From the NCBI RefSeq assembly GCF_041886205.1, contig NZ_CP169029.1: a stretch of DNA of 64,000 nucleotides; one strand, written 5' to 3'. Source of the stretch: Escherichia coli (GTDB lineage: Bacteria; Pseudomonadota; Gammaproteobacteria; Enterobacterales; Enterobacteriaceae). Under the pieces are notes generated by a model. The model saw only the letters and a list, made by a program, of their open reading frames with translations. It ran no database searches and was not told where the DNA came from. Below are positions 3,186-17,875 of the stretch, piece by piece. Numbering within the stretch: the stretch's first letter is position 1; each line of letters starts with the position of its first letter. The position numbers and the translations under genes are program-made.

Positions 3186-3670
3186 TTGTGACCATAAAAC
3201 ATTTATCAAAAATCTACTACTAGCATAGCAAAGCTACAATTAACATAACCTTAATAGCCCCAACATAAAGAATAATCTGAATAGCTGCTCTATTTATTTC
3301 CGCTTGTTTAAGTTAAATATTTCCGCGCATCGATTAAAGATGATGCGTCGTTTTCTGCGATGGGAATAGTCAAAAAAGAAAAACCAAGTCTTTTTTGATG
3401 ACAAAATGCAATCAAGGAAATATTTCTTTATTTTTTAATTGGATACAACAATCATCTTAACGAAGTATATAATATATATCGTCAACCCATGCTCATGGTA
3501 GATTATTTTCTGAGCACGCAACCGCAGCTAACACCATTGCGATTAACAAATTTGCATCAATCCCCCATCAATTTACACACATTATTATGTGATAATTGCC
3601 AACCGCTAAATATGCGTTTTGTTATCTACGTATAAAAACAGCAACTTCAATGTGTTAATGGCAGTTTTTC

Positions 3671-3684
3671 TTGATTTTAATCAG
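3671..3684. promoter_or_regulatory. FNR-like box (TTGAT-N4-ATCAG) upstream of dcuC
   Basis: ttgattttaatcag about 95 bp upstream of the dcuC ATG; dcuC is known to be anaerobically induced via FNR; motif match only. Confidence 0.4.
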
Positions 3685-3773
3685 CATTCATCGCCAATTT
3701 ATTGGGCATATTTTTTCCTTAAGTTTTAGGAATTTTTTATTATTTACTTTGGGGCCTGGAGACAGGAAAAATT

Positions 3774-5159
3774 ATGCTGACATTCATTGAACTCCTTATT
3801 GGGGTTGTGGTTATTGTGGGTGTAGCTCGCTACATCATTAAAGGGTATTCCGCCACTGGTGTGTTATTTGTCGGTGGCCTGTTATTGCTGATTATCAGTG
3901 CCATTATGGGGCACAAAGTGTTACCGTCCAGCCAGGCTTCAACAGGCTACAGCGCCACGGATATCGTTGAATACGTTAAAATATTGCTAATGAGCCGCGG
4001 CGGCGACCTCGGCATGATGATTATGATGCTGTGTGGCTTTGCCGCTTACATGACCCATATCGGCGCGAATGATATGGTGGTCAAGCTGGCGTCAAAACCA
4101 TTGCAGTATATTAACTCCCCTTACCTGCTGATGATTGCCGCCTATTTTGTTGCCTGTCTGATGTCACTGGCCGTCTCTTCCGCAACCGGTCTGGGTGTTT
4201 TGCTGATGGCAACCCTGTTTCCGGTGATGGTAAACGTTGGTATCAGTCGTGGGGCAGCAGCTGCCATTTGTGCCTCCCCGGCGGCGATTATTCTCGCACC
4301 GACTTCAGGGGATGTGGTGCTGGCGGCGCAAGCTTCCGAAATGTCACTGATTGACTTCGCCTTCAAAACGACGCTGCCGATCTCAATTGCTGCAATTATC
4401 GGCATGGCGATCGCCCACTTCTTCTGGCAACGTTATCTGGATAAAAAAGAGCACATCTCTCATGAAATGTTAGATGTCAGTGAAATCACCACCACTGCTC
4501 CTGCGTTTTATGCCATTTTGCCGTTCACGCCGATCATCGGCGTACTGATTTTTGACGGCAAATGGGGTCCGCAATTACACATCATCACTATTCTGGTGAT
4601 TTGTATGCTGATTGCCTCCATTCTGGAGTTCCTCCGCAGCTTTAATACCCAGAAAGTTTTCTCTGGTCTGGAAGTGGCTTATCGCGGTATGGCAGATGCA
4701 TTTGCTAACGTGGTGATGCTGCTGGTTGCCGCTGGGGTATTCGCTCAGGGGCTTAGCACCATCGGCTTTATTCAAAGTCTGATTTCTATCGCCACCTCGT
4801 TTGGTTCGGCGAGTATCATCCTGATGCTGGTATTGGTGATCCTGACAATGCTGGCGGCAGTCACGACCGGTTCAGGCAATGCGCCGTTTTATGCGTTTGT
4901 TGAGATGATCCCGAAACTGGCGCACTCTTCCGGCATTAACCCGGCGTATTTGACTATCCCGATGCTGCAGGCGTCAAACCTGGGCCGTACCCTTTCGCCC
5001 GTTTCTGGCGTAGTCGTTGCGGTTGCCGGGATGGCGAAGATCTCGCCGTTTGAAGTCGTAAAACGCACCTCGGTGCCGGTGCTTGTTGGTTTGGTGATTG
5101 TTATCGTTGCTACAGAGCTGATGGTGCCAGGAACGGCAGCAGCGGTCACAGGCAAGTAA
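3774..5159 (+). CDS. dcuC: anaerobic C4-dicarboxylate transporter DcuC
   Basis: 461-aa polytopic membrane ORF matching DcuC over full length. Confidence 0.95.
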   Translation: MLTFIELLIGVVVIVGVARYIIKGYSATGVLFVGGLLLLIISAIMGHKVLPSSQASTGYSATDIVEYVKILLMSRGGDLGMMIMMLCGFAAYMTHIGANDMVVKLASKPLQYINSPYLLMIAAYFVACLMSLAVSSATGLGVLLMATLFPVMVNVGISRGAAAAICASPAAIILAPTSGDVVLAAQASEMSLIDFAFKTTLPISIAAIIGMAIAHFFWQRYLDKKEHISHEMLDVSEITTTAPAFYAILPFTPIIGVLIFDGKWGPQLHIITILVICMLIASILEFLRSFNTQKVFSGLEVAYRGMADAFANVVMLLVAAGVFAQGLSTIGFIQSLISIATSFGSASIILMLVLVILTMLAAVTTGSGNAPFYAFVEMIPKLAHSSGINPAYLTIPMLQASNLGRTLSPVSGVVVAVAGMAKISPFEVVKRTSVPVLVGLVIVIVATELMVPGTAAAVTGK

Positions 5160-15546: not shown

Positions 15547-15693
15547 TCATCTGATTTACAAAACACGCTAATTCGTCTTCCATAAACTATGACGATTAAG
15601 AATTATACATAATGCGCTGCATTGAGGAATTCCCTGAATGTGACGCAAATCACTTCAAAGAGTGAGCAACAGTCAGTATCATCATGTGAGTTA

Positions 15694-15727
15694 AACCCTC
15701 GCCGCCAGACGGTGAGGGTTTTCTTTT
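15694..15727 (+). terminator. candidate intrinsic terminator/attenuator in rna-rnk spacer
   Basis: imperfect hairpin AACCCTCGCC-gccagac-GGTGAGGGTT followed by TTCTTTT; lies 150 bp after rna stop. Confidence 0.4.
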
Positions 15728-15775
15728 GGGTATGTTTATCTGCGACACTCGCAGTACCGACGACATGGAGTAAAA

Positions 15776-16186
15776 ATGTCCAGACCAACTATCATCATTA
15801 ACGACCTGGATGCCGAACGCATCGATATTCTGCTGGAGCAACCCGCCTATGCTGGTTTGCCAATCGCCGACGCGTTAAACGCAGAGTTGGATCGCGCCCA
15901 AATGTGTTCGCCAGAAGAGATGCCACACGACGTGGTGACAATGAACAGCCGGGTTAAATTCCGCAATCTTAGCGATGGCGAAGTGCGTGTGCGCACGCTG
16001 GTGTATCCGGCAAAAATGACCGATAGCAATACTCAGCTTTCCGTTATGGCTCCGGTAGGTGCCGCACTGCTGGGACTGCGCGTTGGCGATTCCATTCACT
16101 GGGAACTTCCGGGCGGCGTTGCAACCCACCTTGAAGTGCTGGAACTCGAATACCAGCCAGAAGCTGCTGGCGACTACCTGCTTTAA
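15776..16186 (+). CDS. rnk: regulator of nucleoside diphosphate kinase Rnk (GreA/GreB-like)
   Basis: 136-aa [32 protein letters not shown]... Confidence 0.93.
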
Positions 16187-16323
16187 TCCCATCTGCACAA
16201 GCGATAACTCGCTTTGCCCAGAGGATGCACTCGCATCCTCTTTACGCAAAATCAGCAATTTTTCCTGGTTCTCACTGTTCACTTTTGCTGCAAAATTATT
16301 CCGTTTCGTTTGTGGGAATAACC

Positions 16324-16413
16324 ATGGCAGAAGCATTTTACATCCTGATAGGATTCCTGATTATGGCGGCGATTATCGTCATGGCTGCCCTTTACCTCGA
16401 AAACCACTCGTGA
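16324..16413 (+). CDS. candidate small membrane protein (29 aa), not a call I can tie to a known gene
   Basis: ATG with GGGA Shine-Dalgarno 6 nt upstream; MAEAFYILIGFLIMAAIIVMAALYLENHS is one predicted TM helix; ends 3 bp before the convergent ybdR stop. Confidence 0.3.
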   Translation: MAEAFYILIGFLIMAAIIVMAALYLENHS

Positions 16414-16416
16414 CGT

Positions 16417-17655
16417 TCATATTGTTCCCCCCGGCATCGCATTCACCAGACCTGAAACCGCCTTCTGCGCTGCCTCTGCGCTTTGTGCACCGGGTACCAG
16501 AATCACCTTACGGCACTCCTCTTCACGTTTTTCGAAAATCTCATATCCCCGGGCGGCCTCTTCAAACGGCATATAGTGGGTAACAATTTCTTCTGGTTTC
16601 AGTAATCCTTTCTCAATTAACGGTAATAATTCTCCCAGCCATGCGTGAACGTGGGTCTGTCCCATTTTAAACGTCAACCCTTTATCAAAGGCGTCGCCAA
16701 ACAGGAAACCGTGAATAAATCCAGCGTAGACGCCCGGTACGCTAACAATGCCGCCACGCCTGACCGCCGCAATACACTGGCGCAACGCTTTACCGCTGCT
16801 GCCCTCCAGTTTCAGGTTAGTCAGCACCGTTTCCGTGGTGCTGCCTTTCGCTTCAAAACCGACGGCGTCTATTACTGCATCCACGCCCCGGTGACCTGCC
16901 GTTTGTTCAATAATTGACTGTGCCGGATCGCTATCTTCATCAAAATTAATCGGGATCGCGCCGTAGCGGTCAGCGGCGAAACGCAAGCGGTAGGGATGAT
17001 GATCAACAACAAAAATCTGTTCCGCACCGAGCAACCGTGCACAGGCGATTGTCAACAATCCCACTGGACCGGCACCATAGACTGCAACGCTTGAACCTTG
17101 TTGGATCTGCGCATTTTTTGCTGCCTGCCACGCCGTTGGCAAAATATCAGAAAGGAAAAGGGCTTTATCATCTGAAAGCAAAGGCGGTACTTTAAACGGC
17201 CCCACATTCCCTTTAGGGACGCGGACATATTCCGCCTGCCCGCCAGGAACGCCACCATACAGGTGACTATAACCAAACAATGCCGCGGGAGCTGGTATCT
17301 GTTTTTTATTGAGCGCAGCGCCTTTACCCGCATTGGTATTTTCGCAGGCGGCATATTGCTGCAATCGACAGAAAAAACAGTCGCCACAAGCAATGGCGAA
17401 CGGAATTACCACCCGGTCGCCTTTTTGCAAATTTTTTACGTCCTTTCCGGTTTCAACGACTTCCCCCATAAATTCATGACCAAAAATATCGCCATGTTTA
17501 ACCTGGGGTATTTTGCCTCGATAAAGGTGGAGGTCAGAGCCACAGATCGCCGTTGCCGTAATACGCAGAATTATATCATCTGCCTGTTCAATGCCCGGAT
17601 CGGGAACATTTTCTACCTGAACGTGATGTGGGCCGTGATAAGTCAATGCTTTCAT
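16417..17655 (-). CDS. ybdR: Zn-dependent alcohol dehydrogenase-like oxidoreductase YbdR
   Basis: 412-aa [23 protein letters not shown]... with MDR/GroES-like ADH signatures ([15 protein letters not shown]). Confidence 0.92.
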
Positions 17656-17875
17656 GCAACCTCCAGAGACAGTTCAAAAAAGAGTCAGTCTTTAAGGGTA
17701 GCTATCACAGCGGGAAAACGGGCGGTACCGCAGGATTTGGGAGAATTCCTGGTGTTCAGTGAGAATATATTCATCACAGAAACAGTTCGTAAGGAAAAAG
17801 AACCAGACAAATATCAGGGATAAATATTATAATCATGGCGAATGATTTGTTCATGATTAACAGGGAGAAAGGGTT

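Follow-up and report, generated by a model that had tools for sequence, protein, structure and literature searches.

Identification of a 29-codon frame downstream of rnk in Escherichia coli as yldA, and the homology of its product to the EnvZ activator YoaI

The short spacer between rnk and ybdR in Escherichia coli raises the question of whether an open reading frame of only 29 codons is a real gene and, if it is, what its product might do. The frame lies in a stretch of 64,000 nucleotides of E. coli DNA (the window) and was picked out in an earlier note made from the letters alone. It runs on the plus strand at 16324–16413, exactly as that note had it, from an ATG at 16324–16326 to a TGA at 16411–16413, and its translation is MAEAFYILIGFLIMAAIIVMAALYLENHS (29 aa). 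The upstream neighbour rnk (nucleoside diphosphate kinase regulator, 15776–16186, plus strand) is constant, and its stop codon ends at 16186. On the other side ybdR (zinc-dependent alcohol dehydrogenase, 16417–17655, minus strand) is convergent with the frame and has its stop codon at 16417–16419. Both neighbours are supported by an ORF and by annotation. The 230-bp length of the rnk–ybdR spacer and the 3 bp between the two convergent stop codons had both been read correctly. The GGGA reported 6 nt 5′ of the ATG is likewise present (16314–16317, plus strand), and as judged from its letters it is only a weak Shine-Dalgarno-like match. A frame of this size is unremarkable in itself, as a stretch of 2.3 kb contains 40 ORFs of 20 aa or more. 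It is set above chance by its conservation and not by its length.

The earlier note could give the small ORF no name. In RefSeq, a locus with 100 % identity shows the gene order rnk, yldA (90 bp), ybdR on the opposite strand and uspG, and the product at the matching position is named “small membrane protein YldA”. Residues 1–29 of 29 are covered both by the NCBIfam equivalog model for YldA (NF041476; 52.8 bits with a cut-off of 45) and by the Pfam model for YldA-like proteins (PF23689; 69.8 bits with a cut-off of 27), and the exact window protein carries the name YldA in the public protein collection. The frame also has the position of yldA, directly 3′ of rnk and on the same strand, as is likewise seen in 34 species loci. 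With the coding signature described below added to the annotation and the two models, the frame is almost certainly the genuine, already annotated and detected gene yldA.

Synthesis of the K-12 protein has been shown with a chromosomal C-terminal SPA tag and immunoblotting (VanOrsdel 2018, PMC6001520, Table 1). Tagging at the native locus, which the earlier note had suggested as a check, was thus already published, and the protein had been detected. The same table lists YldA as a protein of 29 aa encoded between ybdR and rnk at 643330–643419 of the MG1655 sequence NC_000913.3. K-12 YldA (MAEAFYILIGFLIMAAIIVMAVLYLENHS) and the window protein have the same length and the same rnk–ybdR position and agree in 28 of 29 residues. 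The sole substitution is V22A, and the SPA-tag detection therefore applies to the K-12 protein and not to the V22A variant. Codon 22 of the window (16387–16389, plus strand) is GCC for Ala, where K-12 and 35 of 36 compared copies have Val. The variant (P0002) is a minority allele, found on 451 contigs in the protein collection. The earlier description of a translated single-helix inner-membrane protein is accordingly supported: translation is borne out by the K-12 tag, while membrane insertion is a prediction from hydropathy, with a mean Kyte-Doolittle value of 2.6 for residues 4–25 and a top 19-residue window of 2.84. The case shows that a true gene of 29 codons can be recovered by a reader who has nothing but the sequence. 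Annotation and detection of yldA date back to 2018 or earlier, so that nothing is added to the gene catalogue.

Conservation was followed in 80 loci around rnk, with one genome per enterobacterial species, in which small ORFs were scanned by phmmer and then with an HMM. An ATG-initiated ORF of 29 codons follows rnk on the same strand in 34 of these loci, from the genera Escherichia, Citrobacter, Enterobacter, Lelliottia, Leclercia, Kosakonia, Phytobacter and Pseudenterobacter. The distance from rnk to its start is 126–147 nt in 32 of these loci (137 nt in the window), and the remaining two have distances of 230 and 310 nt. The 34 loci, the window and a second E. coli allele (allele 2, see below) gave 36 distinct nucleotide sequences for comparison. 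All 36 start with ATG, have exactly 29 codons and contain zero indels, and the spacer 5′ of the frame varies freely in length between 126 and 310 nt. A G-rich element (GGGGA, GGAA or AGGTG) is found 6–8 nt 5′ of the ATG in most of them.

The entropies at codon positions 1, 2 and 3 across the 36 copies are 0.66, 0.49 and 1.18, respectively. Pooled pN/pS is 0.385 for the whole gene, 0.475 for codons 2–14 and 0.278 for codons 15–29. The gene is under purifying selection as a protein, and the conservation and synonymous-substitution analysis that the earlier note had proposed came out in its favour, with the frame kept, no indels, an excess of variation at third positions and a low pN/pS.

The consensus of the family is M-x-E-x-L-x-I-T-L-x-F-L-I-x-x-A-I-I-V-x-A-V-L-Y-L-E-R-H-W. 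Residues M1, E3, A21, L25 and E26 are invariant, the last of these being encoded by GAA at 16399–16401 (plus strand) in the window, and I7, A16, V19, V22, L23 and Y24 are near-invariant. The N-terminal half of the helix varies among hydrophobic residues; in the C-terminal half, all faces are fixed. Two longer versions of the frame were considered and rejected. An in-frame ORF of 62 aa (16225–16413, plus strand) would start at an ATG inside the hairpin that follows rnk, and it is unconserved, the spacer not being held to multiples of three. A form of 33 aa from the GTG at 16312 (16312–16413, plus strand; MGITM..., P0013) is known from old annotations only and is not conserved in other species.

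The gene is missing next to rnk in 46 of the 80 species loci, and the presence of ybdR varies independently of it, since all four combinations are found. Both genes are present in 12 loci, and yldA occurs without ybdR in 22, one of these incomplete. Ten loci, for example of the Salmonella, E. cloacae and E. hormaechei types, have ybdR without yldA, and 36 have neither gene (for example Kluyvera, most Kosakonia and the C. freundii group). Scars of deletion can be seen in Enterobacter. In E. cloacae DSM 26481 (locus L033, 3473–3511) only the 3′ half and last codons of the frame are left (..VAAVLSLKRHR*), and in E. hormaechei subsp. hoffmannii (locus L040, 3480–3556) the leader with its G-rich motif is joined to the ybdR 3′ flank and no ORF remains. 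The gene was thus deleted independently in Enterobacter lineages. Because of these deletions and the absence from 46 of 80 loci, any role of yldA must be accessory.

Within E. coli the gene occurs in two forms. A megablast search with 16150–16450 (301 bp) as query found the region in 5422 of 5426 complete genomes, only 16 of these 5422 having at least 99 % identity over the query. Haplotype 1 has the order rnk-yldA-ybdR-uspG, is the one seen in the window and was found in 3602 complete genomes. Haplotype 2 was found in 1818 genomes; it has no ybdR and carries yldA allele 2 (MSEALGITAFYIFIAAIIVAAVLYLEQRW) 123 nt upstream of uspG. One or the other haplotype thus matches in 5420 of the 5426 genomes; these counts are nucleotide matches and not ORF checks, and among sampled rows with a match across the gene, yldA was annotated in 31 of 32.

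The two alleles both have 29 codons and are 53 % identical in nucleotides and 48 % identical in residues, the shared residues being M1, E3, A4, I7, A15–V19, A21 and L23–E26. Allele 2 is the form seen in E. albertii, E. marmotae and further Escherichia lineages; allele 1 is closest to the forms of C. amalonaticus and C. sedlakii. Similarity between the haplotypes ends just past the rnk hairpin, at base 98 of the query (16247 of the window), and the hairpin marks the left edge of the variable segment that contains yldA. The whole dimorphic segment reaches from the rnk hairpin to the uspG promoter, corresponding to 16247–17875 of the window and 3598–3892 of locus L002; it may stem from a horizontal replacement or from an old polymorphism. 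The pattern of presence and absence and the two E. coli alleles provide ready-made comparison strains.

As for function, no experiments on the role, partner, topology or localisation of YldA were found in the accessible literature. A lead comes from YoaI (K-12 b1788, 34 aa), which like YldA consists of a single hydrophobic helix. With the NCBIfam model for YoaI (NF041475, cut-off 45), the window YldA scores 17.5 bits and allele 2 scores 30 bits (E 4e-7), both below the cut-off, and in the reciprocal comparison K-12 YoaI gives a weak match to the YldA model (E 0.035). A YldA HMM built here gives YoaI 18.6 bits. Of 20,000 full shuffles none came up to this score, and of 20,000 core-only shuffles, in which the polar ends were kept and the hydrophobic core was permuted, 4 did.

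Using hhalign, 33 YldA sequences were aligned with 17 YoaI sequences, the latter from 23 representatives of a full-library phmmer search with YoaI. The alignment has 96.7 % probability, an E value of 4e-10 and 27 ungapped columns, with YldA residues 2–28 on YoaI residues 7–33, so that a YoaI residue n pairs with residue n-5 of YldA. The real score of 39.2 was reached by 0 of 600 column shuffles, which gave 8.7 ± 2.3 (maximum 19.7) when full and 16.1 ± 3.5 (maximum 26.6) when restricted to the core. Comparisons between profiles of transmembrane helices can overstate relatedness, and the shuffle controls argue against that for this pair. From this profile-level homology, we conclude that YldA and YoaI are paralogs.

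The conserved positions of the two families coincide. The invariant YoaI residues E8, L10, I12, F16, S26, V27 and E31 fall on the conserved YldA positions E3, L5, I7, F/Y11, A21, V22 and E26. At the positions aligned with S26, V27 and E31, YldA has an invariant Ala21, a near-invariant Val22 (Ala in the window) and an invariant Glu26. The two proteins have in common the pattern E-x-L-x-I-T ... F ... V-x-(S/A)-V-L-x-L-E-R. They differ in that YoaI has five extra N-terminal residues (MNDxM) and a Ser-rich stretch, both lacking in YldA, and in that the Ser26 that is invariant in YoaI is replaced by Ala in YldA. YldA is not an ortholog of YoaI, as it stays below the cut-off of the YoaI model, has no MNDxM at its N-terminus and is encoded at a different, unrelated locus. 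The YldA family of Pfam does not include YoaI, the words “YldA”, “paralog” and “homolog” are absent from the main text of the YoaI paper (PMC11429745), and among the papers mentioning YldA in the literature searched none discusses YoaI. The link between the two proteins appears not to have been made before.

Overexpression of YoaI prolongs the lag phase. The protein resides in the membrane, binds EnvZ and activates it (Vellappan et al., PMC11429745). Residues S26, V27 and E31 are invariant among 57 YoaI orthologs, and E31 lies in the predicted cytoplasmic tail; with the substitution E31A or E31Q, the binding of EnvZ and the activation of the reporter are both lost, and membrane levels are unaffected (PMC11429745). 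Control by PhoB, the response to Mg2+ and the binding of EnvZ are features of YoaI, and none of them is known for YldA.

From these data a model for YldA can be proposed, which is drawn entirely by analogy with one paralog, YoaI. YldA consists of one hydrophobic helix (about residues 4–25), flanked by a few acidic N-terminal residues (Glu3) and by a polar tail, also short, at the C-terminus. The tail is Glu26-Asn-His-Ser in the window and Glu-Arg-His-Trp in most genera. The protein might insert in the inner membrane with the N-terminus out and the C-terminal tail in the cytoplasm, as predicted for YoaI; the positive-inside rule does not settle this orientation from the end charges of E. coli allele 1 (Glu3 at one end, Glu26 and no Arg at the other). 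The N-terminal half of the helix, which varies, could serve only as an anchor, and the conserved C-terminal half (A16-I-I-V-x-A-V-L-Y-L-E26) could bind a larger inner-membrane protein and alter its activity. Glu26 may then make an electrostatic contact, like that of YoaI Glu31 with EnvZ. As partner, a sensor kinase would be the leading guess, by analogy only. The Ala that the window protein has at the near-invariant Val22 position is a point against the model.

We give slightly better than even chances to YldA being a single-pass modulator of a larger membrane protein, a role suggested by its likeness to YoaI. That the target is specifically a kinase is doubtful on the same analogy. Equally tentative is a still wider reading, in which YldA and YoaI would form one family of enterobacterial single-pass sensor-kinase tuners acting through a C-terminal V-L-x-L-E motif, with YldA as a second modulator, on EnvZ or on another histidine kinase. 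If this were true, the divergent E. coli yldA alleles, one of them linked to ybdR, would give lineage-specific signalling set-points.

A reasonable alternative to a regulatory role is that YldA is a passive accessory subunit, which stabilises or assembles a membrane complex and is no signalling regulator. Small accessory subunits of this kind are KdpF in KdpABC and CydX in cytochrome bd. A permanent helix-helix contact would fit the conserved half of the helix, and YldA is detected in rich medium without stress. Yet the gene forms no operon with a membrane-complex gene, its neighbours being rnk, ybdR and uspG, and its patchy distribution tracks no complex that could be identified. As YoaI, the sole detectable relative of YldA, is in addition a kinase activator, we consider a passive subunit unlikely.

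A different possibility is that the transcript and not the peptide matters. The hairpin after rnk that the earlier note had described is present at 16220–16241 (plus strand) with the sequence AGAGGATGC-ACTC-GCATCCTCT; it folds as a 9-bp stem with a 4-nt loop and is followed by TTT only. In the terminator scan it was not accepted on the T-run criterion, having three T only. The stem (GAGGATGC...GCATCCTC) is identical in 21 species of several genera, and the loop varies; no covariation was seen (columns 37–59 of the alignment). The hairpin is probably the 3′ end of rnk or a weak terminator. A protein-binding or processing site is also conceivable, because the stem is conserved beyond what a plain terminator needs.

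A scan for sigma-70 promoters found none in the rnk–yldA spacer, the one plus-strand match near it being at 16337–16364 inside the yldA ORF. By eye, only weak -10-like motifs could be seen in the spacer, and these are not common to all lineages. Probably yldA is transcribed either by polymerase that reads through the weak hairpin of rnk or from a non-consensus promoter within the spacer of 137 nt, and in the window the transcript would necessarily overlap the 3′ end of ybdR. Apart from the excludon listing given below, one hint of expression was found in the literature: the gene appears in a table of mRNAs that change with fluoride dose under anaerobiosis, before the heading “Downregulated” (PMC10100675). 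A hairpin that sequesters the Shine-Dalgarno element was considered and rejected: the window folds a 7-bp stem over GGGAA, and this stem is not kept in the 21-species consensus fold.

Further elements lie around the locus. Upstream of rnk, at 15622–15730 (plus strand), lies an rnk_leader (Rfam RF01771; 124 bits with a gathering score of 50), which includes a terminator-like hairpin at 15693–15721. Beyond ybdR, back-to-back promoter-like sites for ybdR (minus strand) and uspG (plus strand) are found at 17804–17853. They have a TATAAT region in common, each agrees with the consensus at 10 of 12 positions, and the part nearer to uspG is conserved in loci without ybdR as well.

If the RNA were the main function, antisense transcription into the 3′ end of ybdR would control ybdR as a convergent excludon, and the peptide would be secondary. 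Indeed, the ybdR-yldA pair is listed with those convergent excludons that occurred in 50 % or more of a set of RNA-seq samples (PMC12288877). The arrangement is also a tight one: the stop codons of the two genes are 2–10 nt apart in 12 other species, and in the same range across all 13 two-gene loci including the window, and no terminator fits between them. However, ybdR is missing from 21 of the 34 yldA-positive species loci (one further locus being incomplete) and from the 1818 E. coli genomes of haplotype 2, and the frame is intact there. Ten species, moreover, have ybdR but no yldA. Control of ybdR would also leave the constraint at the amino-acid level (third-position excess, pN/pS 0.39) unexplained, and we judge an RNA function of this kind to be quite improbable.

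It is more improbable by far that YldA is a membrane-damaging peptide like a type I toxin, restrained by an antisense RNA. The protein is short and very hydrophobic, and where ybdR is present, convergent transcription of this gene overlaps yldA. Against such a toxin, SPA-tagged YldA builds up in ordinary culture when expressed from its native locus, the gene is present in one copy and keeps its synteny across genera, loci without ybdR have no antisense or convergent partner, and the protein resembles YoaI and no toxin family. An Rfam scan in and around the ORF gave no antitoxin RNA or other RNA family. Least of all do we believe in a chance ORF or translational noise. The commonness of such lengths by chance, the weak Shine-Dalgarno match and the absence from many related species might suggest it, but the prospect is negligible: frame, length and start are kept in all 36 copies, which come from 8 genera or more and show a coding signature, next to a spacer that gains indels; no overlapping element that could explain the conservation was found with Rfam or in the consensus fold.

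A genuine translated yldA gene whose product acts as a modulator of a larger membrane protein is thus, as a whole, the best explanation of the data, and we hold it to be rather probable. For a protein of unknown function, the YoaI link provides a specific and cheap test, namely whether YldA binds EnvZ or another kinase in a Glu26-dependent manner.

The proposed modulator would join other small membrane proteins with larger partners, such as MgrB with PhoQ, AcrZ with AcrB and MgtS with MgtA. Sequence similarity of YldA to MgrB, AcrZ or MgtS was not detected in the NCBIfam and Pfam scans, and unlike for YldA, their partners and inducing signals are known. In common with YldA, these proteins are of the same size class, have one transmembrane helix, lack an enzymatic domain and presumably exert their effect through contact with a larger protein of the membrane (PMC12648545 and general knowledge).
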